A stretch of 64,000 bases of DNA from an uncultured Planctomycetota bacterium (GCA_964493415.1 CAZBND010000005.1:39076-103075), one strand, 5' to 3'. Shown: positions 20,306-54,204, counted from the first letter of the stretch. Made by a program: numbers and translations. The notes: generated by a model from the letters alone, not told the origin.

Positions 20306-20377
20306 ATGTCCCCCTCCCTTCAAACCTGAAATCCCTTAGCGGCCGGAATCCGACAACACTGCGCGCAACGTCAGCAA

Positions 20378-21814: not shown

Positions 21815-22073
21815 TCGATTCTCCCTTTCCAGGCTGGTTGCCTACAGAGCCTGATCAAGTCGCTGCGTTCGGAAAACGCCGCGGCGACCAGGCAGCTATT
21901 CTAGCCCTTAGAGGACTGCCTGCCAACCGTGGATTCGCTCGCTGCCGCCACATCCGCTCATCGGACGATTGTGAGTTGACACCCCCGACACTTGCGCTAT
22001 ACTCATGGAGTATTTCCCGTCCTGCGCGCGGATCAGTCGTAACCGGCTTTCAGCAGCAAGGGAGGTTACAGAC

Positions 22074-26991: not shown

Positions 26992-27020
26992 TTGACTACT
27001 ATACCTCTGTATAGTATACT
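26992..27020 (+). promoter_or_regulatory. sigma70-like promoter (TTGACT-17-TATACT) with an embedded palindromic candidate LexA operator, CTATAC-ctct-GTATAG overlapping GTATA-g-TATAC
   Basis: Read directly from the sequence. The -35 is at 26992-26997 and the -10 at 27015-27020. The inverted repeats occupy the spacer and the -10. GGAG lies 6 nt before the lexA ATG at 27037. Confidence 0.55.
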
Positions 27021-27036
27021 CCTGCCGGAGACACGA

Positions 27037-27624
27037 ATGGCCTTGACCGATAGACAGCGAGAGATTCTGGATTTTATCACGGCATACGGTGCGGAGAACG
27101 GCTTCGCGCCCACTGTCCGAGAGGTCGCTGCGGCTTTCGGATACCGATCACCGAAGGCTGCGCACGATCATATGAGGGCCCTGGAGCGAAAGGGGGCCGT
27201 TCGGCGGACGCGCGGCATTGCGAGAGGGCTGGAGTTGCGCGACCGGCAGCCGGCCGGCGTACCCGTGCTGGGGGTGGCTCCAGCCGGGCGGCCACTCCTC
27301 GCCGAGGAGGTCCCCGGAGACATGCTCCCCTCGCCTCTCGGTTTCGGTAACGGCGGAAAGCTCTTCGCGGTGAAGGTCGTCGGTGACAGCATGGAGCCTT
27401 TACTCAGCTCCGGCGATCACGCGGTCATCAGAGCCGAACAGACCGCACAACCCGGGGAGATGGTGGCCGCACGTGTCGAGGGCGAGGTGACGCTGAAGCG
27501 TCTCGCGCGGCGCAAGAATAGGCTGGTGTTGAAGCCCGAGAATCCGTCCTACCCCGTGATTCCCGTCACCCGCGACACCCGGATCATCGGCAAGGTCGTG
27601 GGAATGTACAGGCGCTTCGAGTGA
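27037..27624 (+). CDS. lexA: LexA repressor (S24 peptidase), copy 1
   Basis: N-terminal winged HTH (LTDRQREILDFITAY..NGFAPTVREVA). C-terminal S24 domain (VKVVGDSMEPLL...GEVTLKRL). Ala-Gly cleavage-site context is present. Confidence 0.9.
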   Translation: MALTDRQREILDFITAYGAENGFAPTVREVAAAFGYRSPKAAHDHMRALERKGAVRRTRGIARGLELRDRQPAGVPVLGVAPAGRPLLAEEVPGDMLPSPLGFGNGGKLFAVKVVGDSMEPLLSSGDHAVIRAEQTAQPGEMVAARVEGEVTLKRLARRKNRLVLKPENPSYPVIPVTRDTRIIGKVVGMYRRFE

Positions 27625-28202
27625 GGTCGACGGTGGCCGCCGGGTTCATGCTTGTCGAAACCGAAGGCGCAAGTGCGGAGGTCTCTTCGCGCCTTGCCGC
27701 GCGGCTGGCTGCCGGCGACGACCGCGTGTTCTACCTTGACGGGGAAAACGGATTCCGCGTCTATGCAGCCGCAGAAGAGGCGGAAGCGCAAGGCACGCCC
27801 GCCTTGGATGCGCTGGAGAGAATCCAGGTAGCGCGGGCGTTCACGTGCTTCCAGATGGTGGAGCTTCTGCGCAACGCGGCACGCAAACTTGCCGCAGAAG
27901 ACATAGCCATCCTTGCGGGCCCATGCACCGCGTTCGCCGACGAGAACGTTACAGACCGCGAGGTCAGCTTTTTTCTCGGAAAGGCTCTGGACTCGGCGAA
28001 GCAGCTCTCTTCTCGGACGACCTTGACCTTCCAATCGGGAGAAGACTTAGGCCGCAGACCCTGGCTTCTCTCGCGGCTTCGCGCAGCCGCTGCTGCCTGC
28101 GTCGTCCTTCCGCAGACGGCAAACGTGGGCGAGCTGCTGAGAAAACTGAACAAACGGAGGATTCTCAAGTGGGGCGCACCGCACCCTCTTTCAGCCGAGT
28201 GA
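27621..28202 (+). CDS. Hypothetical protein co-translated with lexA (SulA/ImuA-like by position only)
   Basis: GTG start overlaps the lexA stop (GTGA). 193 aa. No motif recognised. Annotation is by synteny only. Confidence 0.5.
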   Translation: MRSTVAAGFMLVETEGASAEVSSRLAARLAAGDDRVFYLDGENGFRVYAAAEEAEAQGTPALDALERIQVARAFTCFQMVELLRNAARKLAAEDIAILAGPCTAFADENVTDREVSFFLGKALDSAKQLSSRTTLTFQSGEDLGRRPWLLSRLRAAAAACVVLPQTANVGELLRKLNKRRILKWGAPHPLSAE

Positions 28203-28261
28203 TTGATGCAGAGGCCGAACGATGGAGAAAATTCCGCCGCGCCCTGCGCAAGGAGGACCAG

Positions 28262-28420
28262 ATGTTGTTCGACCGCATCTTCCACAGAGCGAGGCGCAAC
28301 GTCCAGGCATGGGCCTACGCCGCGATGCCTCATCCCTTCGAAGCGCTGGTCATGAGTGTGCTGCTGGATCAGGAGAGAGAACTTCGCGAGCTTCGAACAC
28401 GCAGTCAGGCGACCACGTGA
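28262..28420 (+). CDS. Small ORF (52 aa; or 73 aa from GTG 28199), in an alternative frame, coupled to the polymerase gene
   Basis: AAGGAGG lies 5 nt upstream of ATG 28262. Product MLFDRIFHRARRNVQAWAYAAMPHPFEALVMSVLLDQERELRELR is helix-rich and not low-complexity. Its TGA overlaps the polymerase GTG start (GTGA). Confidence 0.45.
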   Translation: MLFDRIFHRARRNVQAWAYAAMPHPFEALVMSVLLDQERELRELRTRSQATT

Positions 28421-30597
28421 CGCGGACGATTCGAGGGCTACTTCTTGACGTGTACCCTACGCCCGAAGGCATGGTGCTGTGGATACGCGTCAGCCGCGAC
28501 GTGCTCAGGCTGGAGGACCGCATCCCCCTCCCCTTCTACCTTGGCGGAAGAGCTTCGGTAAGGACGAGGGCGCTACTGCGGCTTGCAAAGCGCGGGCTCG
28601 TCGGGCGATCACGTCAGACCCGCATGACCGATTTCTGGTCCGGCGAGAAAATAGCCGTCACCGAAGTCATCTGCCCGGGGTACGGTCACCGCAAGGAGGT
28701 CGCCTCGGCGTTGCTCCCGCTCGAGGGCGAACTCGATGTCTACAACTCCGACATCCCGGAGGACCAATACCACCTGTACCTTCGAGGCCTGTTCCCCCTT
28801 GCCGAGGTCGAGGTCGAGGCGTCCGGCTCGACGGTGACCTCCATCGCGCCGACTTCATCTCCCTGGGAAAAGAGGTACGAGTCCCCGGAACTTCCGTGGC
28901 TGGAGCTGGCCGTCGAAGGAGATCGAGGAAGAGGGCTCCGGGCAGGGACCCTTCGACTGCGCACGTGGGCCGGAACCGACATGGAACTGAGCCCCTCTCC
29001 GTCGGCCGAGGCGCTGGAGGCGCTGGCCGCCGTCATGGAGCAAACCGACCCGGACCTGGTGCTGACCGACCGGGGCGACTCGTACCTCCTACCCGAGCTG
29101 GAGACGATGGCGCGACGTAAGGGAATCAATCTTGGGTTGGACCGAGAGCCTCTTCGCGTGGGGGTTCGTCGAGGCGCGCCGGCGCGCAGTTACTTCAGCT
29201 ACGGACGAATTGTCCACAAGGACGCGAGCTTCGAACTCGCGGGCCGCATCCACGTGGACCGCAGCAACTCCTTCATCTACCGGCAGTGCGGGCTCGACGG
29301 TCTGGTGGAGTTCGCGCGAATCAGCAAGCTGCCGCTCCAGCGGGCGGCGCGCGGCTCACCGGGAACCGCCATAAGTTCCATGCAACTGGATCAGGCGGTG
29401 CGCGACGGTATCTTGGTCCCCTATCGCAAGTCGCGGGTAGAGGACTTCAAGTCCGCCGCGCGACTATTGGCAGGCGACAAGGGCGGCTTGATATTCATGC
29501 CGCCTCCGGGACTGCACGCGCGCGTCGCGGAGATCGACTTCCAGTCCATGTATCCCAGTCTCATGGCGCTTCACAATATATCTCCCGAGACAGTAGGATG
29601 TGAATGCTGCACCGGCTCCGACGTTCCGGAACTGGGCTATCACATCTGCAAGCGCAGGAGGGGCTTGGTTCCCCGCGTCCTCGCGCCCCTTCTCGAGAGG
29701 AGAGCCTTGTATAAAGCCAGGGCCACATCCGGCGACGGGAGCCCGAGAGAGCCGTACGCCAGCCGGCAAGCCGCGCTGAAATGGATGCTGGTAACCTGTT
29801 TTGGCTATCTGGGATACAAGAACGCGCGCTTTGGGAAGATCGAGTCGCACGAGGCCGTGACAGCGTTCGGGCGAGAGGCCCTGCTCGCTGCGAAGGAAAT
29901 CTGCGAGTCGCGCGGATACGAAGTGCTCCACGCCATGACCGACTCGCTCTGGATCAAGCCCCTGGGGCAGGACGCGGAGAATCTCAATTCCCTCTGCGCG
30001 CGGATAACCAGCATGACGGGCGTGAGCATGCGCGTGGAAGCGCGCTACAGGTGGGTGGTCTTCCTCCCGTCGCGAGCGGACCCCGGGAGACCCGTCCCCA
30101 ACCGCTTCTTCGCCGCCACTGAGGACGGTCGGCTGAAGGCACGAGGCCTCACGTTGCGTAGGGGCGACACCCCGGAGTTCATAAGGGATGCGCAACATAA
30201 GCTTCTCGATCTTCTCGCTCGCGCAGCCGATCCCCTGCAACTGCGCGAAATCGCCGCGACCGAGGGGGCCGCCTTGGCCGAAGCCTTTCACTTCGCGCTC
30301 ACCTCGGGTGAGGTCCACCCGGACAGCCTCCTGATCGAGCGAAGGATGTCCAAAGAGTTGAGCGATTACGCGAACGAGACCATGGCTCAATCCGCGGCCC
30401 TGCAGCTTGAGAAGGCCGGAAGGCGCGTGAGACCAGGACAGAGCGTCCGGTACTTGATTTGTCGAGACTCTCCAGGTAGCCGCGAAGCACACGCAAAACC
30501 GTACGAGTTAGTGGGCCCTGATGACGGCTACGACGCAGCCAAATACCGCGAGATGCTCCGGCAAGCTGTCAAGGAGGCCCTGCTTTACGAACGATAA
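28417..30597 (+). CDS. Family-B DNA polymerase (PolB/Pol II-like) lacking recognisable 3'-5' exonuclease motifs
   Basis: Motif A is IDFQSMYPS. Motif B-like is KWMLVTCFGYLGYKNARFG. Motif C-like is LHAMTDSLW. The N-terminus LLDVYPTPEGMVLWIR is PolB-like. No Exo I (DIE), II or III motifs were found. I favour the GTG start at 28417, but the ATG at 28222 is possible. Confidence 0.7.
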   Translation: MTRTIRGLLLDVYPTPEGMVLWIRVSRDVLRLEDRIPLPFYLGGRASVRTRALLRLAKRGLVGRSRQTRMTDFWSGEKIAVTEVICPGYGHRKEVASALLPLEGELDVYNSDIPEDQYHLYLRGLFPLAEVEVEASGSTVTSIAPTSSPWEKRYESPELPWLELAVEGDRGRGLRAGTLRLRTWAGTDMELSPSPSAEALEALAAVMEQTDPDLVLTDRGDSYLLPELETMARRKGINLGLDREPLRVGVRRGAPARSYFSYGRIVHKDASFELAGRIHVDRSNSFIYRQCGLDGLVEFARISKLPLQRAARGSPGTAISSMQLDQAVRDGILVPYRKSRVEDFKSAARLLAGDKGGLIFMPPPGLHARVAEIDFQSMYPSLMALHNISPETVGCECCTGSDVPELGYHICKRRRGLVPRVLAPLLERRALYKARATSGDGSPREPYASRQAALKWMLVTCFGYLGYKNARFGKIESHEAVTAFGREALLAAKEICESRGYEVLHAMTDSLWIKPLGQDAENLNSLCARITSMTGVSMRVEARYRWVVFLPSRADPGRPVPNRFFAATEDGRLKARGLTLRRGDTPEFIRDAQHKLLDLLARAADPLQLREIAATEGAALAEAFHFALTSGEVHPDSLLIERRMSKELSDYANETMAQSAALQLEKAGRRVRPGQSVRYLICRDSPGSREAHAKPYELVGPDDGYDAAKYREMLRQAVKEALLYER

Positions 30598-41701: not shown

Positions 41702-42733
41702 ATGATGGGCGCAGTTATCGTCGTGGATGCCTTCTGGGGTGACTCGGGGAAGGGAAAGATAGCCGCCCACCTGGCAAGACGGCTCGGCGTGACCTATAGC
41801 GCCAGGGCGGGAACGGGCACCAACGCCGGGCACAGCGTTTACATGGAGAACGGCAAGCTGCTCAAACTGAACCAGCTCCCTGCCGCACTGGTGCAAAAGG
41901 ACTCCCAGGTTCGCGTGGGCAGCGGGGTAGCGGTCGATCCCGAGATATTCCTGCGCGAGCTCGAGGAGTACGAATCGGATTTCGATCTCAAGGGCCGCAC
42001 CAAAGTCGATTACCGCTGTCCCGTCATAACTCCCGAGTTCAGGAAGGCGGAAGCCGAGGACAACGGCCTGGCGCATAAGATAGGTTCCACCAAGAGCGGA
42101 ACGGGGTTCGCCCTCTCGCAGTTCGTCCTCCGAAAGGCAAAGCAGGCGAAAGACATGCCGGAGCTTGAGGGGTTCACGACCGACGTCGCAGCCGAAATGA
42201 ACGAGGCCTGCGATCGAGGCGAGACTGTACTCATCGAAAGCAGCCAGGGGACGTGGCTCTCTCTCGCTCTTACTCCCGACTATCCCTACTGCACTTCGGA
42301 CAACTGCACGGCAGCCGCCAGCGCCGACGATGTGGGACTTAACTGGAAGCACATTGAAGAGGTTGTGATGCTCGTAAAGGCGGTGCCGAGCCGGGTCGGC
42401 GAAGGACCTCTACCTTTCGAGATATCAAAGGAGGAGATAGAGGATCGAGGAATAGCAGAGTACGGCGTCACCACCGGGCGGCCGAGGAGAAAGGCGAGCC
42501 AGATATCGTGGCCTCACCTCCGATACTCGGTAATGTTAAACGGCCCCACGCAGATAGCGCTCACATTCTGCGACCACCTCGACCCCGACGTGGTTGGAAT
42601 CCGGGATCAGGGCAAGCTCACAAGGAAAGTCATGAGTCTTGTGGAGCGCATCGAGGACGAGTGCGGCGTTCCGGTCACCCTGGTGGAAACAGGCAAGACC
42701 CTTGACTGCATAGTCAAACTCGACCGCCGCTAG
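41702..42733 (+). CDS. purA: Adenylosuccinate synthetase, short (archaeal-type, 343 aa) form
   Basis: The P-loop VVDAFWGDSGKGKIAAHLA matches the PurA QWGDEGKGK motif. Its length matches the short archaeal clade. Confidence 0.7.
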   Translation: MMGAVIVVDAFWGDSGKGKIAAHLARRLGVTYSARAGTGTNAGHSVYMENGKLLKLNQLPAALVQKDSQVRVGSGVAVDPEIFLRELEEYESDFDLKGRTKVDYRCPVITPEFRKAEAEDNGLAHKIGSTKSGTGFALSQFVLRKAKQAKDMPELEGFTTDVAAEMNEACDRGETVLIESSQGTWLSLALTPDYPYCTSDNCTAAASADDVGLNWKHIEEVVMLVKAVPSRVGEGPLPFEISKEEIEDRGIAEYGVTTGRPRRKASQISWPHLRYSVMLNGPTQIALTFCDHLDPDVVGIRDQGKLTRKVMSLVERIEDECGVPVTLVETGKTLDCIVKLDRR

Positions 42734-42736
42734 CCC

Positions 42737-43795
42737 CTACACTTCGCCAAGCCTGTTGCGTATCAGAGTCGCTCGGGCCAAATCCCTCTTTTCCTCTTCG
42801 AGCTTCTTGCCCTCCAGCTTCTGAAGGTGAGCGGGCTGGGTGAGAATGAACAGCTCGTTGAGGCTGTTAATGTGCACGTCCTTAACGAGGCCGAGGTTTA
42901 CGCCCAGGCGTAACTGCGAAAGATACACCATCGCCTCCTGAGAGGAGATCGTCCTGGCGCTCCTGAGCATGCCGTACGCGCGCCACACCCTGTCCTCTAC
43001 GGCGGTGCGGCCGTGCTCCAGCAGGTATTCCCGGGCATTGCGCTCGAACTTTATCAACTGAGGGATCACGCTCTTCAACGACTGGATGATTTCCTCCTCG
43101 GATTTGCCCAGCGATACCTGGTTGGATAGCTGGTAGAGATCGCTGGACGCCTCGGTCCCCTCCCCGTACATCCCCCTGACCGCAAGATTCAGCTTCGCCA
43201 TGGCGGCGAAGACTTTTTTCATCTGTTTTGTCATAACCAGGCCGGGCAAATGGAGCATCACGGACGCTCGCATCCCCGTGCCCACATTGGTCGGGCACGC
43301 TGTCAGGTACCCCAGTTTCGGTGAGAATGCGTAACGAATCCGTTCCTCGAGGAGATTATCGGACCGATTCGCAAGCTCCCAGCACTCGTCCAGCTCGAAG
43401 CCGGAATGGATAACCTGAAGTCGAACGTGGTCCTCTTCGTTCACCATCACGCTGGTCCGCTCGGTTTTTCCGACGGCTACGCCGCGTTTCCCCTTGCCCT
43501 CGGCCAACTCACGGCTTATAAGCTGTCGCTCCTGGAGGTACTGCTTCTCCAGCTCGCCCGCTTGGTCGATGTCTATGTAACGCAGATCGGGTTCGAGACC
43601 GGCTCCAAGAATCCCTTGCTCCAGGAACTTGGCTAGAGCCGCCTGCTGTTCCGGCTTCATGCGGGCGGCAAAAGGGAAATCGGCCACGTTTCGCGCCAGG
43701 CGAATCCGGCTCGACAGCACGATGTCCGCCTCGCTTCCCGAGCCTCTAAGCCATTCGGCTCCGTTGCCGCCCGCCTCACTCGCCGCCACTGCCAA
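42737..43795 (-). CDS. mcsB: Protein-arginine kinase McsB
   Basis: DIVLSSRIRLARNVADFPF, MVNEEDHVRLQ, YLTACPTNVGTGMRASVMLHLPGL, RGMYGEGTEA and ILTQPAHLQ are near-identical to McsB blocks. Confidence 0.9.
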   Translation of the reverse strand: MAVAASEAGGNGAEWLRGSGSEADIVLSSRIRLARNVADFPFAARMKPEQQAALAKFLEQGILGAGLEPDLRYIDIDQAGELEKQYLQERQLISRELAEGKGKRGVAVGKTERTSVMVNEEDHVRLQVIHSGFELDECWELANRSDNLLEERIRYAFSPKLGYLTACPTNVGTGMRASVMLHLPGLVMTKQMKKVFAAMAKLNLAVRGMYGEGTEASSDLYQLSNQVSLGKSEEEIIQSLKSVIPQLIKFERNAREYLLEHGRTAVEDRVWRAYGMLRSARTISSQEAMVYLSQLRLGVNLGLVKDVHINSLNELFILTQPAHLQKLEGKKLEEEKRDLARATLIRNRLGEV

Positions 43796-44288
43796 TCTCC
43801 TTTTCGAGGAGGGATATCTTGTCGCGAAGCTCCGCAGCCTCCTCGTAGTGCTCTTCCGATACCGCGTCCTGAAGGCTCCTGCGCAACTTTATCAGCTCGC
43901 TCAGCCGCGCGGCGGAAGTTCCCGCCTGCGCAGGAGTTTTTCCCGTGTGCTGCGTCGAATGGTGAATCTGCTCGATGATCGGCATAAGCCCCTTCTTGAA
44001 AACCTCGTAGTCATTGGGGCATCCCAGCCTACCCTTGCTCTTGAACTGCCGGAACGTTATTCCGCACCGGGGACATTTGAGCGCAGCCAGCTCCTCGTCG
44101 ATCTCCTGACCCTTCGTTCCTATGAGCCCGCTCAGCACCTCCCCGATATCGATTTTCGGCGCGGAGCTTATCCCCTTGCCGCTGGCGCACTGCTCGCAGA
44201 AGTGATGCTCCTTCTTCTCTCCCACCAGATTGGTAATGTGCACCGTCGCGAGTCGCTTCTTGCATATCTCACAAATCTTGTTGGCCAT
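43776..44288 (-). CDS. mcsA: McsA (zinc-finger plus UVR-domain activator of McsB)
   Basis: Two CxxC pairs (CEICKKR...CEQC; CPRCG...CPNDY). C-terminal UVR motif EEHYEEAAELRDKISLLEKE. Confidence 0.85.
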   Translation of the reverse strand: MANKICEICKKRLATVHITNLVGEKKEHHFCEQCASGKGISSAPKIDIGEVLSGLIGTKGQEIDEELAALKCPRCGITFRQFKSKGRLGCPNDYEVFKKGLMPIIEQIHHSTQHTGKTPAQAGTSAARLSELIKLRRSLQDAVSEEHYEEAAELRDKISLLEKEIGSGGE

Positions 44289-44323
44289 TCCTCACACCTT
44301 TCAGCCGAAAGCGGGTCCCGCCG

Positions 44324-45118
44324 TTAGCCCAGCTTGCCGGCCCGCGAGGCCGTTATGTAGTTAAGGCAGAACTCGTCTTTTCCTAAAAGCGCCTCCATCG
44401 CAATCACCGTCTGCATAACGCTGCGCTCCAATGCATCCATTATAGCCGCATCGAGGCCTGCTCTCATCATCAATGCGAGAAACGTCGCGTTCAACAGCGC
44501 CCGGTTAGGCATCCCGAAGGAGACGTTGCTCAAGCCGCAAACAACATGTATTCCGGGATGAGCCCTTTTGGCGGCCCGAACCGTGTCCAACACCGCTACC
44601 ACGTCGTCCGGCACGGTGCACACCGGCTGGATGAGCGGGTCCACGTAGATATGTTCGACCGGGATCGAAAGCCGCGTCGCTGCTGAGACTGTTCTCTCGA
44701 GTATCTCAAGTCGCCTCTGGACCCCTGTGGGTACACCCTCGTCGTCCATTAGGAGGGCGACGACGGGGGCGGAATTGCCGGCGGCGAGGGCAAGAGTCGG
44801 TTCAAGCCGTGACTCCTCCGCGGTCGCAGAATTGACGAGAGGGGTCTTCTCAGACGCGGCGACGGCTTCCTCCAGCGCCTTCAGGTTCGCGCTGTCCACG
44901 CACAAGGGCAAGTCAACCGCTTTCTGAACGGTCTGGACAAGCCAGACGAGATTCTCCGCTTCTCTCTTCGGATCGCCGCCGGCGTTGACGTCTATCATAT
45001 GAGCGCCCGCGGCGGCCTGTCGCTTCGCCACGCCGCTTATGAACTCCGCATCGCGCGCCTCAATCGCTCGCCTGATTCGGCTCCTCGTCGCGTTAATCCT
45101 CTCCCCGATAACAAGCAT
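44324..45118 (-). CDS. Pterin-binding methyltransferase, methyltetrahydrofolate:corrinoid protein methyltransferase (AcsE/MtrH-like)
   Basis: MLVIGERINAT start. Blocks LCVDSANL, LVNSAT, YVDPLIQP and GLSNVSFG match the MeTr/AcsE pterin-binding TIM barrel. Its length (264 aa) matches AcsE. Confidence 0.6.
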   Translation of the reverse strand: MLVIGERINATRSRIRRAIEARDAEFISGVAKRQAAAGAHMIDVNAGGDPKREAENLVWLVQTVQKAVDLPLCVDSANLKALEEAVAASEKTPLVNSATAEESRLEPTLALAAGNSAPVVALLMDDEGVPTGVQRRLEILERTVSAATRLSIPVEHIYVDPLIQPVCTVPDDVVAVLDTVRAAKRAHPGIHVVCGLSNVSFGMPNRALLNATFLALMMRAGLDAAIMDALERSVMQTVIAMEALLGKDEFCLNYITASRAGKLG

Positions 45119-45121
45119 TCC

Positions 45122-46492
45122 TCACTCCGGTTTGCTCTCGTACCTCTTTTCCCATCTCAGCAAGTCCATCACCGCCGCGAGAGTCGATTTTCCCGACCTT
45201 ATCTCCTCCATGATCCGGTCTTCCTTTTCGAGGCATTCCATCCCTCGATTTGCAAGCTCAACAGCGTCCCCTTTCGGTATGATCATCACTCCGTCGTCGT
45301 CACCTACGACCCAGTCGCCCGGGAATACCCTCACGCCGGAGATCAGCAGAGGGACATTCAGCTCTCCCATACCCCTGGGCTCTCCCGCGTGTGATGTCAC
45401 CAGCCGCGCGAACGCCGGAAACCCCAGCTTCCGGACTGTGTGCGTATCCCGAATCGCTCCGTTTATCACCACGCCCGATATTTTGCGCTCGATTGCGCTG
45501 AGCGTCGCCATCTCGCCCCAGATTGCCGGCGCGACCCCTCCGGCATCGATCACTATCACGTCTCCTTCGCCGGCTTCGTCGATCGCCTCGACCGGTTTGG
45601 CCCAATCGCCGGGATAGGTCCGAACGGTAAAGGCCTTGCCGACCACACGCGCTCCTTGGACGACCGGCTTTATGCCCTCCAGACACGGCGTACGATGCAT
45701 GCCGTCGGATATGTTGGCCGTTGAGACCCGGGAGAAAACTTCCCTGATCTCCTCTCCCGTCACCCGCTTGAAAAGCACCGTCGCTCGCTTCTCTCCGGTT
45801 GCCATGGCCTGCTTGATGGCCCTGGTCGCCTCGGCCGCATCCCTGGCTTTACATATGGCCCCGCCGACGATGACGATATCCGCTCCCGCGGCGACCGCAT
45901 CTGCGGCGCTCTCGGAGTTCATGCCGCCTGCCACCGCGATCGGTATAGTCACCTTCTGTCGAATCTCCCGCAGGACGTCAAAGGGGTCCCCGCCGAGCAT
46001 CTGTTCGTCAATCGCGGTATGCACGCCCACGTGGCCGGCCCCCCACTCCTGCGCCTGCTGTGCCCTCATCACGGGGTCTGAGACCGCCAAGAGGTCCACC
46101 CCTACCTGTATGCCGTAGTTCGCTCCGGCGCGGATGCACTCCTTCACGGTGGAGTCGGTCGCGGCGCCCATGACGGTGGCGTGATGCGCCCCGGCCTTCG
46201 CCGCCGCTTCCACCTCGATTCGCCCCGCATCCATGACTTTAAGGTCCGCGACCAGCGGCACCTTGGGGAAACGCGAACGCAGCTCCCGCACGCACTTCAT
46301 CCCCTCGCTCTTTATCAGCGGCGTGCCCGCCTCCAGCCAGTCCGCGCCGCCGGCCACTGCTTCCTCCGCGGCCCTCAAGGCTCGGTGCAAATCCACATAA
46401 TCCAGTGCAACTTGAAGAATCGGAGCCATGGCCAAATCAACCCCGTACGCTATGACGGAGAATACCTTGCGCAACTGCCGGGCGTCTCCCAT
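45122..46492 (-). CDS. Fusion protein: N-terminal 3-hexulose-6-phosphate synthase-like (OMPDC/KGPDC family), C-terminal RraA-like (RNase E regulator / 4-hydroxy-2-oxoglutarate aldolase-like)
   Basis: ILQVALD...ADLKVMD...VAGGM... is the HPS pattern. The C-terminal half carries RraA-family GD/GA-rich blocks (VVINGAIRD, GDWVVGDDDGV). Confidence 0.6.
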   Translation of the reverse strand: MGDARQLRKVFSVIAYGVDLAMAPILQVALDYVDLHRALRAAEEAVAGGADWLEAGTPLIKSEGMKCVRELRSRFPKVPLVADLKVMDAGRIEVEAAAKAGAHHATVMGAATDSTVKECIRAGANYGIQVGVDLLAVSDPVMRAQQAQEWGAGHVGVHTAIDEQMLGGDPFDVLREIRQKVTIPIAVAGGMNSESAADAVAAGADIVIVGGAICKARDAAEATRAIKQAMATGEKRATVLFKRVTGEEIREVFSRVSTANISDGMHRTPCLEGIKPVVQGARVVGKAFTVRTYPGDWAKPVEAIDEAGEGDVIVIDAGGVAPAIWGEMATLSAIERKISGVVINGAIRDTHTVRKLGFPAFARLVTSHAGEPRGMGELNVPLLISGVRVFPGDWVVGDDDGVMIIPKGDAVELANRGMECLEKEDRIMEEIRSGKSTLAAVMDLLRWEKRYESKPE

Positions 46493-46824
46493 ACGGTGAC
46501 GGCCCGCACGGCAATCGCGGGAGGGAGTTCCGCAGCAATTCGCTCGCAGACGATTCCGGCGATGTTTTCGGTCGTCGGATTCAACACCTCAAATTGCTCC
46601 AGCTCGTTCAGGTTCGCGTGGTCCCACTCGGCGATCGCGCGAGAAAGCAGCGCCCGCGCGTCGTGGAAATCCATCAGCATCCCCTGCCCATTCAAAGCAT
46701 CTCCGCCGAGAGTCAGCCGCACCAGCCAGTTGTGTCCGTGCAGCTTCTCGCACTTGCCTTTGTAGTCCCGCAGGCTGTGCGCCGCCGAAAAATGATCCTC
46801 AACTTCCAGCTCAAACATGCCCAT
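46450..46824 (-). CDS. 6-pyruvoyl-tetrahydropterin synthase / QueD-family protein
   Basis: CEKLHGHNW zinc/catalytic motif. 124 aa. Overlaps the start of the downstream fusion gene by about 40 nt. Confidence 0.75.
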   Translation of the reverse strand: MGMFELEVEDHFSAAHSLRDYKGKCEKLHGHNWLVRLTLGGDALNGQGMLMDFHDARALLSRAIAEWDHANLNELEQFEVLNPTTENIAGIVCERIAAELPPAIAVRAVTVWETPGSCARYSPS

Positions 46825-46990
46825 GCGCCCCCTCTCATTCCATTATCTCAGCGACCCCGTCGCGCTGTCAAGCTCGCACGGCTGCGGCGCATCAGCCTCT
46901 GCCCGCCAAACGTCCTTGACACCGTCGGACGGCACGGATATAACTCCACAGATCGGCGTTGCGGAGCGCCGGTGCCGGGAGCGCTCCTCG

Positions 46991-48487
46991 ATGTATCATC
47001 CTTCCTTTGAAGAATTCAGAAAGCTTGCGCGCACCGAGGGGACGGTTCTAGTCCATCGCCAGCTCCTCGCCGATACCCTTACGCCCGTCTCGGCGTTTCT
47101 CCGTTTGAGCGAAGGGGCGCGCTACGCGTTCCTCCTGGAAAGTGCTTCAGGCGGCGAGACTGTGGGGCGATTCTCGTTCGTCGGCGCCGATCCCCTCCAG
47201 GTTTTCGCTTCACGAGGCAACGACGTCCAATTGCTCCACTCCTCCGGAGAGAAGGAGGAATGGACCGGAGAACCTTTCGCCCAACTGAAGCAGGTCCTGT
47301 CGAGATTCTCCTGCAAGGAGCCCGAGCATCCTGACATGTTCACCGGCGGCGCTGTAGGGTACATATCTTACGATGCGGTTCGCCATATAGAGGACCTCCC
47401 AAATCTTAAGCCCGACAAACTGGGGCTGCCGGAGCTGTATTTTGGCATATATGACACCTTGGTCGTCTTCGACCATCTTCACAAAGTGGTACGGGTCTCG
47501 TGCATGGTCCGCACCGACGAAGCTTCCGCCGCGTCGGCGTACGAACTGGCCTTGGACAAGATCGACAGCGCCGTCGAGCGTCTGCGGCACCCCATCGCTC
47601 TGGTCAGCGACGACGTCCAGGTAAGCGGGCCATTGGACCTTGCATACTCGTCCAACTTCCGCAAAGTGGATTTCGAGGATGCCGTCCGCAGGGCGAAGGA
47701 ATACATCCTGGCCGGAGACGTGTTCCAGGTCGTCCCGTCCCAGCGGCTGGCGGCCACGACCTCCGTGGACGGCCTGGCCATCTATCGCACGCTCCGCGTC
47801 GTCAATCCATCCCCTTACATGTTCTACCTGCGGATGCCCGACGTCTCACTTATAGGTGCGTCGCCCGAGGTGATGGTTAAGGTGGAGAACGGCACCGTCA
47901 CGCTCAGGCCCATCGCCGGAACCCGTAAGCGTGGCGAGACGATCGCCGAAGACAAGGCTCTGGAAAAGGAGCTGCTCGCGGACGAAAAGGAGCGCGCCGA
48001 GCATATCATGCTCGTAGACCTTGCGCGAAACGACGTGGGAAAGGTCTGCGACTTCGCCTCAGTCAAGCTCGACGAATTCATGACGGTGGAGCGATACTCC
48101 CACGTAATGCACCTCACGTCCAACGTGTCGGGCAAGCTCCGTCGGGAATGCGACGCTTTCGACGCGCTGCGAGCTTCCATCCCCGCCGGTACCGTCACGG
48201 GTGCGCCTAAAGTCCGCGCCATGGAGATCATCGAGGAGCTGGAGCCCGAGAAGCGGGGGCCGTATGCGGGTGCTGTCGGAATGCTCGGCTTCGGCGGCGA
48301 CCTCAATACGTGCATCACCATCAGGACAATAACACTTGTCGGCGACATTGCTTACGTACAGGCAGGTGCTGGGATAGTCGCCGACTCCGTTCCCGAAAGG
48401 GAGTACGAGGAGACTCTTAACAAGGCTAAGGCCCTGCTGAAGGCCATTGAAATAGCGGAGCGTCAACTCGGCGCCATAAACGTCTAG
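46991..48487 (+). CDS. Anthranilate synthase component I family (TrpE/PabB)
   Basis: LLESASGGETVGRFSFVG, chorismate-binding C-terminal blocks (GAVGYISYD, PKVRAMEIIEELE, GAGIVADS). Promoter TTGACA-17-TATAAC and a leader hairpin lie upstream. Confidence 0.8.
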   Translation: MYHPSFEEFRKLARTEGTVLVHRQLLADTLTPVSAFLRLSEGARYAFLLESASGGETVGRFSFVGADPLQVFASRGNDVQLLHSSGEKEEWTGEPFAQLKQVLSRFSCKEPEHPDMFTGGAVGYISYDAVRHIEDLPNLKPDKLGLPELYFGIYDTLVVFDHLHKVVRVSCMVRTDEASAASAYELALDKIDSAVERLRHPIALVSDDVQVSGPLDLAYSSNFRKVDFEDAVRRAKEYILAGDVFQVVPSQRLAATTSVDGLAIYRTLRVVNPSPYMFYLRMPDVSLIGASPEVMVKVENGTVTLRPIAGTRKRGETIAEDKALEKELLADEKERAEHIMLVDLARNDVGKVCDFASVKLDEFMTVERYSHVMHLTSNVSGKLRRECDAFDALRASIPAGTVTGAPKVRAMEIIEELEPEKRGPYAGAVGMLGFGGDLNTCITIRTITLVGDIAYVQAGAGIVADSVPEREYEETLNKAKALLKAIEIAERQLGAINV

Positions 48488-48529
48488 ACAGGGAACCAGG
48501 GCCCCGGACAGCCGTAGAGAGGAGAGGAT

Positions 48530-49429
48530 ATGAGCGCCCAGACCATCGACGGGGAAGCGACCGCAGCGAAGATCAAGGAGCAGCTCGTGCCCGACATCGA
48601 CGGGTTGAAAGCCAAGGGCAAGCCCCCACATCTCGTCGCCCTTATGGTCGGCGACAATCCCGCCACGAGAATCTACTCCAACAGTCAGAAGAAAAGCTGC
48701 GAGGAACTGGGCATCGAGTACACGCTGGAGCAGCTCCCCGACGACACAACGGGCCAAGGGCTGGAAAAGCGCATCAAGGAGCTTAATCGCGACGGGTCCG
48801 CCAACGGCATCCTGCTTCAGATGCCCCTTCCGCAGGGAGTCGACGCGCGCGAGCTGCAGGCGATGATCGCGCCCAACAAAGACGTCGAAGGGATGAATCC
48901 CGCAAACATGGGGATGGTAGTGTACGGAAGGCCGCGGCTCGCCCCGTGTACCGCAATGGCGGCGGTGGAGCTCATCAAGGCCACAGGCGTGGAACTCGAA
49001 GGGAAAGAGGTCACCGTCGTTGGCCACAGCGAGATCGTCGGAAAGCCGGTGAGCCTCCTCCTGCTCGACCAATTCTGCACCACTACCGTTTGCCACATCG
49101 CCACGCGGGACCTTGCCCACCATACGAAGAATGCAGAAATACTCGTTGTCGCCGTGGGTAAAGCCGGGCTCATCAAGGGGCAGATGATCAGACCCGGAGC
49201 AATCGTGATCGACGTAGGCATTAACCGTATCACCCTTAAGGACGAAAAGGGCAATCCAGTGCTTACGAGCAAAGGCAAGCCCAAGAAGATTACCGTCGGC
49301 GATGTGGTGTTCGACGAGGCTAAGGAGATTGCATCCCACATTACGCCGGTCCCGGGAGGCGTCGGGCCCGTGACCGTCGCGATCCTTCTCCGGAACACCG
49401 TGGAAGCCGCGAAGATGCAGAGCGAATAA
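48530..49429 (+). CDS. folD: Bifunctional methylene-THF dehydrogenase/methenyl-THF cyclohydrolase
   Basis: Carries the FolD blocks LVGDNPATRIY, NGILLQMPLP and VVGHSEIVGKPV. Confidence 0.9.
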   Translation: MSAQTIDGEATAAKIKEQLVPDIDGLKAKGKPPHLVALMVGDNPATRIYSNSQKKSCEELGIEYTLEQLPDDTTGQGLEKRIKELNRDGSANGILLQMPLPQGVDARELQAMIAPNKDVEGMNPANMGMVVYGRPRLAPCTAMAAVELIKATGVELEGKEVTVVGHSEIVGKPVSLLLLDQFCTTTVCHIATRDLAHHTKNAEILVVAVGKAGLIKGQMIRPGAIVIDVGINRITLKDEKGNPVLTSKGKPKKITVGDVVFDEAKEIASHITPVPGGVGPVTVAILLRNTVEAAKMQSE

Positions 49430-49471
49430 GGGTGCCGCAGTTGTGTTAGAATAGATGTAAGGAGGAGCCCG

Positions 49472-49717
49472 ATGGAGCATACGGTAACACTGCCGCAGCT
49501 TGGAGAAGACGCAGGGGACGAAGCGACCGTGTCGTTCTTTCACTTCGAGGAAGGCGACGAGGTGAAGGAGGGAGACGCCCTGGTCGAGATGGTCACCGAC
49601 AAGGCCGCATTTGACGTTCCCTCGCCCGTGAGCGGAGTCCTGAAGAAGATTCTCGCCGATGAAGACCAAGTCGTGCCGGTGGGCGGCCCGTTGGCGGTGA
49701 TCGAAACCAAGGAATAA
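49472..49717 (+). CDS. Stand-alone lipoyl-binding domain protein (81 aa)
   Basis: EMVTDKA is the lipoyl-lysine motif within a biotinyl/lipoyl hybrid-barrel pattern. Confidence 0.7.
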   Translation: MEHTVTLPQLGEDAGDEATVSFFHFEEGDEVKEGDALVEMVTDKAAFDVPSPVSGVLKKILADEDQVVPVGGPLAVIETKE

Positions 49718-49738
49718 CCTGCACACAGGAGCAGCGCC

Positions 49739-50419
49739 GTGATCATACTCAAGCAGAAAGACTTCGACGAGATCATCGAAGCCCTCTCCGGCGAGCGGAA
49801 AGTTTTCATCGCCGGCTGCACCGACTGCGCCACCACATGCAAAGTTGGAGGGGAAGAAGAACTCGAAAAAATGAAGAAGAAGCTCGAAGGCGCCGGGATT
49901 GAAGTGACCGGAACCTGCGTCTTCGACACGGCGTGCCTTTCCGGAGAGGTGCGCCAGAAAGGAAAGGATAACCAGGAGGCCCTCAAGAACGCCGACAGCA
50001 TTCTGGTGCTCGCGTGCGGAACCGGCGTGCAGACGATAGGGGACCAGCTTGGGTACAGGGTTCACCCCGGCCTGGAGTCTCTTTTCATCGGCGAAGTCGT
50101 GCGACTGGGCAAGTACGAGGAGAAATGCCGGGCCTGCGGAGATTGCGTCCTCGAATACACCGAAGGCATATGCCCCGTCACCAGATGTTCGAAGGGGCTT
50201 CTAAACGGCCCCTGCGGAGGCTACAGCAAGGACGGGAAGTGCGAGGTGGACCCCGAAAAAGACTGCGCTTGGCTACTCATATACGAAAGGCTCAAGGAAC
50301 GTGGCCGCTTGGACAAGATGAAGAAGATGCGGGAGCCGAAGGACTACTCGACAATGTTGTCGCCCAGGCGTCTGGTCTGGGAGAAGCCGAAGGTCAAGGT
50401 CGCAGGAGGGAAGAAGTGA
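49739..50419 (+). CDS. metV: MetV-like Cys-rich small subunit associated with acetogen-type MTHFR
   Basis: About 18 Cys arranged in CxxC-type clusters. Lies immediately upstream of, and overlapping, metF. Confidence 0.6.
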   Translation: MIILKQKDFDEIIEALSGERKVFIAGCTDCATTCKVGGEEELEKMKKKLEGAGIEVTGTCVFDTACLSGEVRQKGKDNQEALKNADSILVLACGTGVQTIGDQLGYRVHPGLESLFIGEVVRLGKYEEKCRACGDCVLEYTEGICPVTRCSKGLLNGPCGGYSKDGKCEVDPEKDCAWLLIYERLKERGRLDKMKKMREPKDYSTMLSPRRLVWEKPKVKVAGGKK

Positions 50420-51291
50420 AACTGCAACAGGCGCTTGAATCCGGGGACTTCGTCATCACGGGAGAGATCGGGCCCCCCAAAGGCACCGACCTCGATCACG
50501 CCCTCGCGGAGGCCAAGGAATATTACACCGACAACGTCGTGGCCGTGAATGTGACCGACCTGCAGAGCTCGGTACTGAGGCTCGGCTCCATGGCGGTCTG
50601 CCACAAGCTCCTGGACATCGGAATAGAGCCGGTTTATCAGATGACCTGCCGCGACCGCAACCGGCTTGCCCTCCAGTCCGACCTCCTCAGCGCGTCTGTC
50701 TTGGGCATCGAGAACGTTCTCGCACTGACCGGCGACCATGTCCCTCTCGGAGATCACCCGCAGGCCAAGCCCGTGTTCGACATCGACTCCGTTCAACTGT
50801 TGCAGGTAATCGATACCCTTCAGCAAGGAAAGGACATGGCCGGCAACGAGCTGGCAGGAGTCCCGAAGTTCTATCCGGGGGCCGTGGTCAGCCCGTGCGC
50901 GGAGCCGCTGGAGCCGCAGTTGTTCAAAATGGAGAAGAAGATTCAGGCGGGAGCGAAGTTCTTCCAGACGCAAGCGGTCTACGACCGCGCAGCGTTCGAG
51001 AATTTCATGGATAAGGTTCGCGGCTTCGGCGTGCCGGTGCTTGTGGGGATCGTCCTCCTGAAGTCGGCAGGCATGGCGAAGTTCATGAACGAAAACGTCG
51101 CAGGCGTTTCAGTGCCCGATGAACTGATAAAGGAGCTCGCCTCCGTCGACAAGAAAGACCGAAAGAAAAAGAGCGTCGAGATCGCCGCAAGGCTCCTACG
51201 CGAAATGAAGGACATGGCCCAGGGGGCTCACATCATGCCCCTCGGATGGGATTCGGAAGTCCCGAAAGTCATAGCAGCAGCCACGGCATAA
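50416..51291 (+). CDS. metF: 5,10-methylenetetrahydrofolate reductase (clostridial/acetogen type)
   Basis: GTG 50416 preceded by AGGAGGG. The MTHFR TIM-barrel blocks FVITGEIGPPKG and CRDRNRLALQSDLL are present. The ORF-track start at 50014 is rejected as an antisense-like low-complexity extension. Confidence 0.8.
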   Translation: MKLQQALESGDFVITGEIGPPKGTDLDHALAEAKEYYTDNVVAVNVTDLQSSVLRLGSMAVCHKLLDIGIEPVYQMTCRDRNRLALQSDLLSASVLGIENVLALTGDHVPLGDHPQAKPVFDIDSVQLLQVIDTLQQGKDMAGNELAGVPKFYPGAVVSPCAEPLEPQLFKMEKKIQAGAKFFQTQAVYDRAAFENFMDKVRGFGVPVLVGIVLLKSAGMAKFMNENVAGVSVPDELIKELASVDKKDRKKKSVEIAARLLREMKDMAQGAHIMPLGWDSEVPKVIAAATA

Positions 51292-51302
51292 TGAGGGATA
51301 AG

Positions 51303-52523
51303 ATGGCGAAGAAGAAACTGCGCCGGGTCGTCTTGGCATACTCAGGGGGACTGGACACCTCGGTCATCCTCCCCTGGCTGAAAGAGACATACGGGTGCGA
51401 GGTGATTGCGTATATCGCCGACGTTGGACAGGGAGAGGAGCTCGATTCCGCGAAAAAGCGGGCTGAAGCCTGCGGAGCAGCCAAGGTGTGCGTCGAAGAC
51501 CTCCGCGAGGAGTTCGTGCAGGACTACGTTTTCCCGGCCTTGAAGGCCGGAGCGGTGTACGAAGGCAGCTATCTACTCGGCACCTCGCTCGCCCGATACA
51601 TCATCGCCGGCAAGCAAGTAGATGTCGCTCACAGGGAGGATGCGGATGCCGTCTGCCACGGCGCTACCGGTAAAGGCAACGATCAGGTTCGGTTCGAGTT
51701 GACCTACATGGCGTTGGATCCGAACCTTGTCGTCATCGCGCCGTGGAAAGATGAAAACTGGAAAATCTCCTCGCGCGAGGACGCCATAGCTTACGCGGCG
51801 CAGCACGAAATCCCCCTTGATGTCTCGACCAAGGATATCTACAGCCGCGACCGGAACATATGGCATCTCAGCCATGAGGGTGCCGACCTCGAATCCCCCG
51901 CCAACGAGCCAACTTCGAACCTCTTCAAGATTTCTAAACCTATCGAGCGGACTCCCGCCAAGCCCAAATACGTCGAGATAGATTTCGAGAAGGGAACACC
52001 CGTCGGGCTCGACGGACGGCCGATGAGCGGCTGCGACCTGGTGAACGAGCTTAACTCCGTGGCGGGCAATCACGGGGTCGGGCAAGTGGACCTGGTCGAG
52101 AATCGCGTCACCGGCATGAAGTCGCGGGGCGTCTACGAGACTCCCGGCGGCACGGTTCTCCACTTAGCTCACAAGAGGCTCGAATCGATCACACTCGATA
52201 AGGCAACAGCGCACTACAAGGAGCTCGTGGCCGTAAAGTACGCCGATCTGGTCTATTCCGGTCTGTGGTTCACTCCCCTCCGCCGAGCGCTCGACGCGTT
52301 CGTCAACTCCACCCAGGAATTCGTGACCGGCACCGTGAAGGTCAAGCTTTTCAAGGGGAATTGCACGCCCGCATCGGTCAAGTCCCCCTACTCACTCTAT
52401 CTCGAGGACTTGGCGAGCTTCGAAATGGGCGACTATGAACCGCAGGATGCCAAAGGCTTTATTTCGCTTTACGGTCTGCCTCTCAAAGTCGTGGGAGCGA
52501 TTCAGAAGCAGAGACCCTCGTAG
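51303..52523 (+). CDS. argG: Argininosuccinate synthase
   Basis: VVLAYSGGLDTSV is the PP-loop. Carries the ArgG blocks ADVGQGEE and GNDQVRFE. ATG 51303 follows GAGGGA. Confidence 0.9.
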   Translation: MAKKKLRRVVLAYSGGLDTSVILPWLKETYGCEVIAYIADVGQGEELDSAKKRAEACGAAKVCVEDLREEFVQDYVFPALKAGAVYEGSYLLGTSLARYIIAGKQVDVAHREDADAVCHGATGKGNDQVRFELTYMALDPNLVVIAPWKDENWKISSREDAIAYAAQHEIPLDVSTKDIYSRDRNIWHLSHEGADLESPANEPTSNLFKISKPIERTPAKPKYVEIDFEKGTPVGLDGRPMSGCDLVNELNSVAGNHGVGQVDLVENRVTGMKSRGVYETPGGTVLHLAHKRLESITLDKATAHYKELVAVKYADLVYSGLWFTPLRRALDAFVNSTQEFVTGTVKVKLFKGNCTPASVKSPYSLYLEDLASFEMGDYEPQDAKGFISLYGLPLKVVGAIQKQRPS

Positions 52524-53480: not shown

Positions 53481-54074
53481 CTACCTGTAACTGCGAAGCA
53501 CGCCGACGACGACCCCTTGGATATCAACCCGGTCTGGAAACATCGGCGGGAGCTTGGGATTCGCCGGTTGCAGCCGAATCCTTCCTCCTTCCCTATAGAA
53601 CTTCTTCAGTGTCACATCGCTCCCGTCAACGAGGGCCACCACGGTCTCCCCATTCCCGGCGACGTTGCGCCGTTCCACTATCACGTAGTCACCGTCCTCT
53701 ATGTGTTCGTCGATCATGGAGTCCCCCCGCACCCGCAGGACGAAGTGATCGTCCGGCCGAGGAAGCATCGCCGCAAGGTCCACCGTCTCGTCTTCCTGAA
53801 CCGCTTCGATCGGCCTGCCCGCCGCAATGTAGCCCAGGAACTTGAGCGACAGCCCGCCTTCCCCCTGGCTCGACCTCAGGACTTTGATCGAGCGAGGCTG
53901 ATAACGCTCGCAGGCGACGTACTGCTTTCGTTCCAAGGCACGCCGGTACTGCAGCGCAGTTACCTCACAAACACGCATGTGCTCGGCAATCTCCCTCAAC
54001 GTCGGAGCGTATCCGTTGCTTGCCGTGTACTTTTCGATGAACTCAAGCACCTTCAGCTGTTTCGGTGTCAACAT
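53481..54074 (-). CDS. lexA: LexA repressor, copy 2
   Basis: LTPKQLKVLEFIEKYTASNGYAPTLREIA is the HTH. RVRGDSMIDEHI...VTLKKF is the S24 domain. Start at the internal Met follows GGAGGAA. Promoter TTGATC-17-TATTAT lies on the minus strand. Confidence 0.85.
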   Translation of the reverse strand: MLTPKQLKVLEFIEKYTASNGYAPTLREIAEHMRVCEVTALQYRRALERKQYVACERYQPRSIKVLRSSQGEGGLSLKFLGYIAAGRPIEAVQEDETVDLAAMLPRPDDHFVLRVRGDSMIDEHIEDGDYVIVERRNVAGNGETVVALVDGSDVTLKKFYREGGRIRLQPANPKLPPMFPDRVDIQGVVVGVLRSYR

Positions 54075-54204
54075 CTCATTCCTCCAGCCCGGAAGTATAA
54101 TAGACCTCGAGGGCGCGGAGATCAATCACCGAACCTCGCCGCTTGACTGAAAATGCCGACGGCATTACAGTATGCTCAGTGGCACACGCGCCAAGGGGGG
54201 ACCA

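Follow-up and report, generated by a model that had tools for sequence, protein, structure and literature searches.

Genes and Organization of the trpE–argG Block

The analyzed window, a stretch of 64,000 nt from an uncultured Planctomycetota bacterium (GCA_964493415.1, CAZBND010000005.1:39076-103075), contains a block of six plus-strand genes, trpE, folD, lip, metV, metF and argG, at positions 46,991–52,523 counted from the first letter of the window (Table 1). The metV and metF genes encode the two subunits of a methylene-tetrahydrofolate (methylene-THF) reductase (MTHFR), and the lip gene directly upstream of them encodes a small lipoyl-domain protein; comparison of the sequences with those of related loci suggests that this protein may be the electron partner of the reductase. 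All six gene identities, which had been proposed in an earlier note on this DNA, were confirmed at their positions on the plus strand using Pfam and NCBIfam models.

Table 1. Features of the trpE–argG block and of the adjoining minus-strand unit (positions within the window).
Feature	Position	Strand	Evidence and remarks
trpE, anthranilate synthase component I family	46991..48487	+	First gene of the putative operon; start placed at the Met where family alignments begin
folD, bifunctional methylene-THF dehydrogenase/methenyl-THF cyclohydrolase	48530..49429	+	PF00763 + PF02882
lip, stand-alone 81-aa E2-type lipoyl-domain protein	49472..49717	+	PF00364, 1.4e-17
metV, Cys-rich Fe-S/Zn subunit of type II methylene-THF reductase	49739..50419	+	PF12225, 2e-35
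metF, TIM-barrel flavoprotein subunit	50416..51291	+	PF02219, 1.5e-41; GTG start; 291 aa by gene callers
argG, argininosuccinate synthase	51303..52523	+	NF001770, 575.8 bits vs. cutoff of 334; 406 aa; last gene of the putative operon
Divergent intergenic region, PTPS operon (−)/trpE operon (+)	46825..46990		ORF map
PTPS/QueD-family 6-carboxy- or 6-pyruvoyl-tetrahydropterin synthase	46450..46824	−	PF01242, 8e-38; TIGR03367, 96.7 bits vs. 89.25
3-Hexulose-6-phosphate synthase (HPS) fused to RraA-like domain	45122..46492	−	PF00215 + PF03737; NF005442, 567 bits vs. cutoff of 593
MeTr/MTII-family methyl-THF:corrinoid methyltransferase-like protein	44324..45118	−	Outside the putative trpE–argG operon

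The longest open reading frame (ORF) of trpE begins at 46817, and its product was recognized by TIGR00564 (578.5 bits, cutoff of 517.7) and by the Pfam families Chorismate_bind and Anth_synt_I_N. A pabB identity, raised by the folate-related neighbors, was rejected, since the TrpE equivalog model was passed and the PabB models failed; no trpG gene adjoins trpE. The FolD models of NCBIfam gave ~290 bits, which is under their narrow equivalog cutoffs.

The junctions of the block had previously been described as overlapping, including an overlap of argG with the metF stop. This was true of metV and metF, which share 4 nt (GTGA, read directly from the sequence) at the stop of the former and the GTG start of the latter, suggesting translational coupling, whereas the other genes are separated by spacers of 42 nt (trpE–folD), 42 nt (folD–lip), 21 nt (lip–metV) and 11 nt (metF–argG). 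Each spaced gene is preceded by a Shine–Dalgarno-like motif, with AAGGAGG ahead of the lip ATG and GAGGG ahead of the argG ATG. The supposed argG/metF overlap is an artefact of the longest ORF (ATG at 51246): the NF001770 alignment begins at residue 23 of this ORF, and both the alignment and the gene callers point to the ATG at 51303, 11 nt past the metF stop. Four metagenome contigs with an identical MetV had the same gene set when their genes were called independently, with a MetF of 291 aa and an ArgG of 406 aa.

The promoter and terminator scan revealed no plus-strand terminator above the chance level from trpE to argG; the counts were otherwise at the chance level as well, and the sole strong promoter-like site (11 of 12 positions matched) was located on the minus strand at 46871-46842, ahead of the PTPS operon. 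No Rfam riboswitch or other RNA element was found in or near the block, either by gathering threshold or by E-value. Given the close spacing on one strand and the lack of an internal terminator, a single trpE-folD-lip-metV-metF-argG operon would be the simplest reading. It should be noted that the gene arrangement exceeds chance, since it recurs in relatives at 56–80% identity and lip is under purifying selection (dN/dS of 0.13–0.26).

Type and Phylogenetic Position of the MetVF Reductase

The MetF protein of the window failed the equivalog models of type I MTHFRs (TIGR00676, 77 bits vs. a cutoff of 294; PRK09432, 30 vs. 382), and its best NCBIfam match was the MTHFR half of PRK08645. It was 52% identical to MetF of Clostridium ljungdahlii and 22% identical to that of Escherichia coli, for which an approximate sequence served as the query; MetV was likewise 52% identical to its C. 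ljungdahlii counterpart. Twelve Cys residues of MetV were invariant across 61 homologs, and one more was nearly invariant. The AlphaFold2 model of MetV (pLDDT 83) predicts a Rossmann-like N-terminal domain and a Cys-rich C-terminal domain; a Foldseek comparison of this model with the PDB matched only generic Rossmann and periplasmic-binding-protein lobes, giving no mechanistic clue, and no solved structure of any MetV homolog was found. Neither RnfC2 (type III) nor HdrCBA/MvhD (type IV) genes adjoin metVF, and the larger ORFs of the window, scanned with Pfam, revealed no hdr or rnf genes or domains.

Since the type I models failed, a MetV partner is present, and no RnfC2 or Hdr genes are adjacent, the pair is assigned by its sequence to the type II (MetFV) MTHFRs in the classification of Öppinger et al. 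(PMC8760232). Enzymes of this type are characterized by FMN, two [4Fe-4S] clusters and activity with reduced ferredoxin but not with NAD(P)H. The assignment agrees with the earlier description of the metV-metF pairing insofar as this named a NADH-independent (or else bifurcation-linked) MTHFR of acetogens. The pair resembles the type II enzymes of C. ljungdahlii, C. formicoaceticum, Eubacterium callanderi and Thermoanaerobacter kivui in its adjacent or overlapping MetF (PF02219) and MetV (PF12225) genes, in the conserved Cys residues of MetV and in the lack of a NAD(P)H-binding subunit, and the clostridial clusters in the upstream position of folD. In contrast to the acetogen systems, the host is a glycan degrader of the Planctomycetota, the putative operon includes trpE and argG, and no fhs, fchA or acs genes are located nearby. 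More than 7,600 clusters matched MetV, and their members come from Planctomycetota, Omnitrophota, Zixibacteria, Chloroflexi, Actinomycetota and Bathyarchaeia, among other groups; given this spread over many phyla, MetV is not specific to acetogens.

In neighbor-joining trees of MetV and of MetF, the window proteins were grouped into a Planctomycetota clade with two basal members, L011 and L013 (related loci are numbered with the prefix L), both located inside real Wood–Ljungdahl (WL) clusters. MetF thus did not group with ordinary biosynthetic MTHFRs, as a check suggested earlier might have revealed, but with MetV-partnered enzymes, some of them within such clusters.

Two further forms of MetV were observed. 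A large clade of MetV paralogs from Omnitrophota and Planctomycetia has no metF nearby; 30 of its loci were considered (L017, L027, L029-L030, L035, L038-L039, L041, L043, L045-L048, L051-L052, L057-L059, L061-L063, L067-L070, L072-L073, L076, L078 and L083). In L041, the paralog is located between mgsA and nifU, followed by the genes of 5-formyl-THF cyclo-ligase and rny. In L019 (9986-12112) and L024 (4763-6889), MetV and MetF are fused in one ORF of ~556 aa, with a GcvH gene directly after it.

The Lip Protein

The best NCBIfam and PDB matches of Lip were the lipoyl domains of E2 proteins (45–50% identity per domain). The motif EMVTDKA contains the lipoyl-lysine K44, which is invariant in the family in its TDKA context, and the family has a specific acidic loop, LGEDAGDEAT, at the position where E2 lipoyl domains usually read LGESVTEGT. 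All of the indexed Lip homologs (101/101) were stand-alone proteins of 63–99 aa. The conserved modifiable Lys, together with the lipA and lipB genes encoded alongside in homolog loci, points to Lip as a predicted lipoylated protein. The fold, family and lipoyl-lysine motif are those of the E2 subunits of 2-oxoacid dehydrogenases, but Lip consists of the lipoyl domain only; the E3-binding and 2-oxoacid_dh catalytic domains are absent, so it is not a full E2, and its gene accompanies metVF or lpd-lipB-lipA rather than E1.

Two other identities were considered and rejected, namely, GcvH, because a GcvH query had no match in the window and Lip matches E2 lipoyl domains, and a biotin carrier, because the motif is TDKA rather than MKM and the best matches are E2 domains. 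No Lip–MetV fusion was seen in a HMMER search of 1.8 billion representatives, the top of which was dominated by multi-lipoyl E2s.

Lipoyl Genes beside metVF in Related Loci

The lip gene was found directly upstream of metV in 12 of the 16 loci of the Planctomycetota clade (the window, L005, L006, L009, L011, L012, L091, L092, L093, L097, L174 and L175). In three of them (L012, L097 and L175) the order is lpd-lip-metV-metF, and in L007 lpd directly precedes metV; the Lpd proteins of these loci pass TIGR01350. A distant lineage, represented by L014-L016 (metagenome-assembled genomes (MAGs) labelled 'Clostridia' by their submitters), has the order fhs-lip-metV-lpd-lipB-lipA-metF-fchA-folD, with the carrier, its reductase and the cofactor-assembly enzymes nested between metV and metF, and with LipB and LipA passing their equivalog cutoffs. 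Elsewhere the lipoyl carrier is GcvH, whose gene directly follows metF in L040 and, in L019 and L024, the fused MetVF gene; no gcvT or gcvP turned up there when selected ORFs of the flanks were scanned with Pfam. The order metF-lpd-gcvH was found in L034 and metV-metF-lpd-lipA in Actinomycetota.

In total, a lipoyl carrier, Lpd or LipA gene was located within 6–10 kb in 28 of the 50 metV+metF loci but was absent from all 30 loci considered in the metF-less paralog clade (0/30), the loci counted not being phylogenetically independent; the chance expectation was estimated by us at a few percent. A parallel with lpdA/gcvH of clostridial WL clusters, drawn in the earlier note, proved to be its most productive idea.

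Two loci of this group have additional features. In L010 (8024-9888), the otherwise conserved lpd-(lip)-metV order is broken by an insertion between lpd and metV, which consists of a 162-aa ORF and the gene of an abortive-infection-like ATPase (AAA_15/AAA_21 + DUF3696). In L175, a full-length E2 with lipoyl, E3-binding and catalytic domains is encoded at 16506-17867, 6 kb from lpd-lip-metV-metF; the small Lip of this locus is thus an additional lipoyl protein and not a replacement for E2.

Putative Electron Path to MetVF

Type II MetVF enzymes have no NAD(P)H site, and what reduces them physiologically is a recognized open question, for which the alternatives listed include 'a lipoic acid binding cofactor' (Öppinger et al., PMC8760232). 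A dithiol protein can drive such an enzyme, since MetFV of C. ljungdahlii reached 7.4 U/mg with reduced thioredoxin (Yi et al., PMC8515935). As for a lipoyl protein acting with MetVF, only hypotheses published in 2021 and one negative test with free lipoamide were found in the literature.

The reading favored here, which we put forward tentatively and give slightly less than an even chance, is that Lip serves as a dedicated redox partner of MetVF fed by Lpd and NADH, the methyl-THF product being most likely anabolic in this organism. Lpd, presumably encoded elsewhere in the genome, would reduce the lipoyl disulfide of Lip with NADH; the dihydrolipoyl arm would then hand two electrons to the Fe-S/Cys center of MetV, and these would reach methylene-THF by way of the MetF flavin, yielding methyl-THF. 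Such a chain would run downhill (NADH, ~−0.32 V; lipoyl, ~−0.29 V; methylene-THF, ~−0.20 V) and would provide a NADH-level donor for an enzyme lacking a NAD(P)H site. The operon partners trpE and argG, the nearby thrC and dapB, and the absence of fhs and of carbon monoxide dehydrogenase/acetyl-CoA synthase (CODH/ACS) genes within 64 kb point to an anabolic role, in which methyl-THF would most likely feed the synthesis of methionine and S-adenosylmethionine. In the basal relatives with adjoining CODH/ACS genes, the same module would serve the WL methyl branch. A more general proposal, that protein-bound dihydrolipoamide recharged by Lpd and NADH could be the physiological donor of type II MetVF as a whole, appears somewhat unlikely; the carrier would then be a small E2-type protein in Planctomycetota and in L014-L016 and GcvH in Firmicutes and others.

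A number of observations weigh against a dedicated role of Lip, in addition to the non-independence of the loci counted. The lpd, lipA and lipB genes are absent from the 64-kb window, and two loci of the same clade, L008 and L013, have neither lip nor lpd nearby. The association of lip is strong as seen from the MetV side and looser as seen from the lip side: of the 80 most closely matching metagenomic lip genes, ~60 have lipA directly upstream, usually with lipB before it and often with lpd too, and only 4 of the 80 adjoin metV, the downstream genes being variable. In Hydrogenedentes and Abyssubacteria, lip is found with lipA, hom and thrC. In biochemical experiments, the C. ljungdahlii MetFV was inactive with NADH, dihydrolipoamide dehydrogenase (DLDH) and free lipoamide, a lipoylated protein not having been assayed (PMC8515935), and reduced ferredoxin is a sufficient donor in vitro. 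Finally, Öppinger et al. modelled an LpdA/GcvH donor and judged it unlikely, in part because lpdA and gcvH also adjoin the NADH-dependent RnfC2-type enzyme.

The family context of lip could also mean that Lip is a general-purpose small lipoyl protein, acting as a relay in lipoyl assembly or as an Lpd-driven dithiol redox or antioxidant carrier, and that its adjacency to metV is a product of lineage-specific drift. Such a role, for which the mycobacterial Lpd-DlaT-AhpD-AhpC chain offers a precedent, is consistent with the prevailing gene order of the family, (lpd-)lipB-lipA-lip followed by varying genes, and with the occurrence of hom and thrC after lip in other phyla. However, the metV adjacency is kept down to 56–59% MetV identity, a second, distant lineage nests the whole lipoyl module inside metV..metF, GcvH behaves likewise elsewhere, and none of the 30 paralog-clade loci has lipoyl neighbors, and we consider a general-purpose role to be distinctly unlikely.

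Drift is not the only explanation that leaves the reductase without electrons from Lip. The lipoyl carrier and Lpd genes may instead serve a glycine cleavage/synthase system, or some other lipoyl enzyme using methylene-THF, which would share a substrate with MetVF and pass no electrons to it. In L055, the order metV-metF-gcvT-gcvH-gcvPA-gcvPB includes a full glycine cleavage set; this locus fits a shared substrate and counts against Lip as a donor. The presence of lpdA and gcvH beside the NADH-dependent RnfC2-type MTHFR is also in line with glycine synthase, which is the published interpretation for C. ljungdahlii and T. acetatoxydans, is mainstream for acetogens, and was still given to the lpdA/gcvH genes in a paper of 2026. 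Yet the carrier of the window is an E2-type domain and not an H-protein, and we know of no E2-type domain that acts in glycine cleavage. Moreover, neither gcvT nor gcvP was detected among the ORFs scanned in the window (GCV_T and GDC-P domains) or around lip-metVF of L016, and the genes called in L174 and L175 include neither, and two different lipoyl-carrier families hold the same position. The probability of such a shared-substrate role at the window locus is judged to be low.

The MeTr-like Gene and the Wood–Ljungdahl Pathway

An 'AcsE-like' gene had been reported 5 kb away from the block and taken, together with it, as a tetrahydrofolate methyl branch. The gene is a real member of the MeTr family; it is, however, located ~1.9 kb from the trpE start, and its product passed the generic model NF005719 (321 bits vs. 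259) but failed the CODH/ACS-specific model NF040758 (CODH_ACS_meth; 149 vs. 370). Its PDB matches were 4o0q (2e-60), the Moorella MeTr (9e-50), the Carboxydothermus MeTr (~1e-49) and MetH (5e-27); we take 4o0q to be the MT2 methyltransferase of a Desulfitobacterium O-demethylase. The gene belongs to a PTPS–HPS/RraA–MeTr–mcsA–mcsB–clpC string that is conserved in Planctomycetota relatives at 51–52% identity and in which no corrinoid protein was found. Judged by its sequence, and given the failed NF040758 model, the closer match to 4o0q than to the Moorella or Carboxydothermus MeTr and the context without a corrinoid protein, the MeTr-like gene can hardly be counted as evidence for CODH/ACS.

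The PTPS–HPS/RraA–MeTr–mcsA–mcsB part of the string occupies 42737-46824 of the window (minus strand) and also occurs in L005, L171 and L173; the PTPS–HPS/RraA–MeTr trio may have to do with pterins/folates or with formaldehyde. Thermatribacter velox (L172) shows an overlap of the MeTr-like gene with folC. An identity as a folP analog, suggested by this overlap and by the NCBI name 'dihydropteroate synthase' given to some homologs, was rejected, as the sequence is of the MeTr/MTII/MetH family. Homologs of HPS/RraA adjoin folD/metF in L015 and L016, where folD is followed (e.g., L016, 16563-20646) by the HPS/RraA fusion, a UPF0047 protein, a 353-aa ORF and a trpE-like gene; the 353-aa ORF has a weak match to the MetE catalytic domain (E = 1.5e-3) and is possibly a core-MetE. 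Thus, HPS/RraA and trpE are tied to C1-folate genes in two unrelated lineages.

A phmmer search for genes of the WL pathway covered every window ORF of 50 codons or more; its queries came from L016 and the C. ljungdahlii cluster, and those for AcsB and AcsC were verified by comparison with the PDB. No match to fhs, cooS, acsB, acsC, acsD or cooC was obtained in the 64-kb window, so the proposed THF methyl branch of the WL pathway finds no support there. Nor were cooS or acs genes present in the 10–20 kb analyzed for the nearer relatives L005, L008, L010, L012, L174 and L175; fhs was found in L008, L011 and L013. In the basal L011 (a Phycisphaerae MAG), the genes acsC, acsB, cooS, an Fe-S/NADH-oxidase-like gene and cooC are divergent from fhs-lip-metV-metF-folD, and L013 has the order fhs..metV-metF-folD-cooC-cooS-acsB-acsC; here, AcsB was matched at 1e-206 and CODH matched PDB 6t7j at 2e-209. 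On the basis of the window and the relatives, the sequences neither show nor refute the WL pathway for this organism.

The block could be the methyl branch of a functional WL pathway, either catabolic or autotrophic, with the MeTr-like gene as AcsE and CODH/ACS encoded elsewhere in the genome, and such a pathway would be compatible with Lip as the donor of MetVF. The type II enzyme, the clustering of MetF and MetV with WL-associated enzymes, the proximity of fhs, (lip), metV, metF and folD to cooC, cooS, acsB and acsC in L011 and L013, and the MeTr-family protein in the window all speak for it. They are set against the lack of fhs, cooS and acsBCD in the 64 kb and of acs genes in the flanks of the nearer relatives, against trpE and argG as operon partners, and against the properties of the MeTr-like protein and its PTPS-HPS/RraA-MeTr-mcsAB unit. 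In addition, a non-acetogenic lifestyle is suggested by the full 2-oxoacid dehydrogenase E2 encoded in L175, a locus with the same lpd-lip-metVF unit. Overall, a functional WL pathway behind this block is regarded as unlikely, and the predicted anabolic use of methyl-THF made with Lip as the electron carrier is preferred.

Other Features of the Window

The host, placed by its MetV homologs among uncultured Planctomycetota, is a sulfatase-rich planctomycete, probably near Phycisphaerae. The rest of the window encodes sulfatases, glycoside-hydrolase-like proteins, sugar ABC uptake genes, an efflux pump, SOS genes, thrC and dapB. Three paralogs of ~1,080–1,100 aa, located at 1640-4891 (−), 17090-20323 (−) and 22005-25310 (+), combine an agarase/YXIM-like galactose-binding domain at the N-terminus with a CARDB domain at the C-terminus; four sulfatases, a GH42-like protein and a sugar ABC transporter are encoded among them, so that this region suggests the utilisation of sulfated galactan. 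Two lexA genes are present, in the stretches 26992-30597 and 53481-54125, and one of them is the first gene of a cassette that continues with a Rad51/ImuA-like protein and a family-B DNA polymerase and looks like an SOS mutagenesis cassette with PolB replacing the usual ImuB/DnaE2. In addition, a 343-aa adenylosuccinate-synthetase-like protein is encoded at 41702-42733 (+); it scored 346 bits against the archaeal-type PRK04293 (cutoff of 368) and 126 against the PurZ model (cutoff of 300).

Comparison with Known Systems and Significance

Protein-bound dihydrolipoamide, recharged by or coupled to redox enzymes, is the dithiol carrier for a non-classical client both in the mycobacterial Lpd-DlaT(SucB)-AhpD-AhpC system, where the client is a peroxiredoxin, and in the sHdr-LbpA system of sulfur oxidation, where it is an Fe-S heterodisulfide-reductase-like enzyme; the carriers differ from Lip, LbpA being GcvH-like and DlaT a full E2. 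In contrast to these systems, the window locus has no ahpD, ahpC or hdr genes. The WL clusters of clostridia, Tepidanaerobacter and Acetobacterium likewise have a lipoyl carrier and/or Lpd gene next to metVF; however, their carrier is an H-protein of the GcvH family, read as part of glycine synthase, whereas that of the window is an 81-aa E2-type domain. The positions differ as well, lip being located directly before metV in the window, while in clostridia lpdA comes after metF and gcvH is ~9 kb off. In the window, no gcvT or gcvP was detected among the ORFs scanned, and L014-L016 also nest LipB and LipA in the cluster.

The MetFV system itself is known, and a link of lpdA/gcvH in WL clusters to the MTHFR has already been hypothesized in the literature (PMC8760232, PMC8515935). 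The new element would be a dedicated E2-type lipoyl carrier gene tied to a type II MTHFR. From comparative genomics, a lipoyl protein as the donor is supported by lip fixed before metV, by the nested Lpd/LipB/LipA/Lip module and by GcvH in the same position. With ferredoxin as the donor of MetVF, the ATP balance of growth on H2+CO2 would be negative (PMC8760232). If protein-bound dihydrolipoamide were the general donor, the unexplained lpdA/gcvH genes of WL clusters would be accounted for, and the energetic dilemma of a ferredoxin-dependent MTHFR in acetogens would be resolved. The proposal thus bears on the in vivo reductant of MetVF-type MTHFRs, an open problem in acetogen bioenergetics, and names the exact proteins concerned. 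Meanwhile, the occurrence of MetVF with a lipoyl gene in polysaccharide-degrading Planctomycetota, in a CODH/ACS cluster in some and in an amino-acid operon in others, bears on the reuse of WL modules for anabolism.

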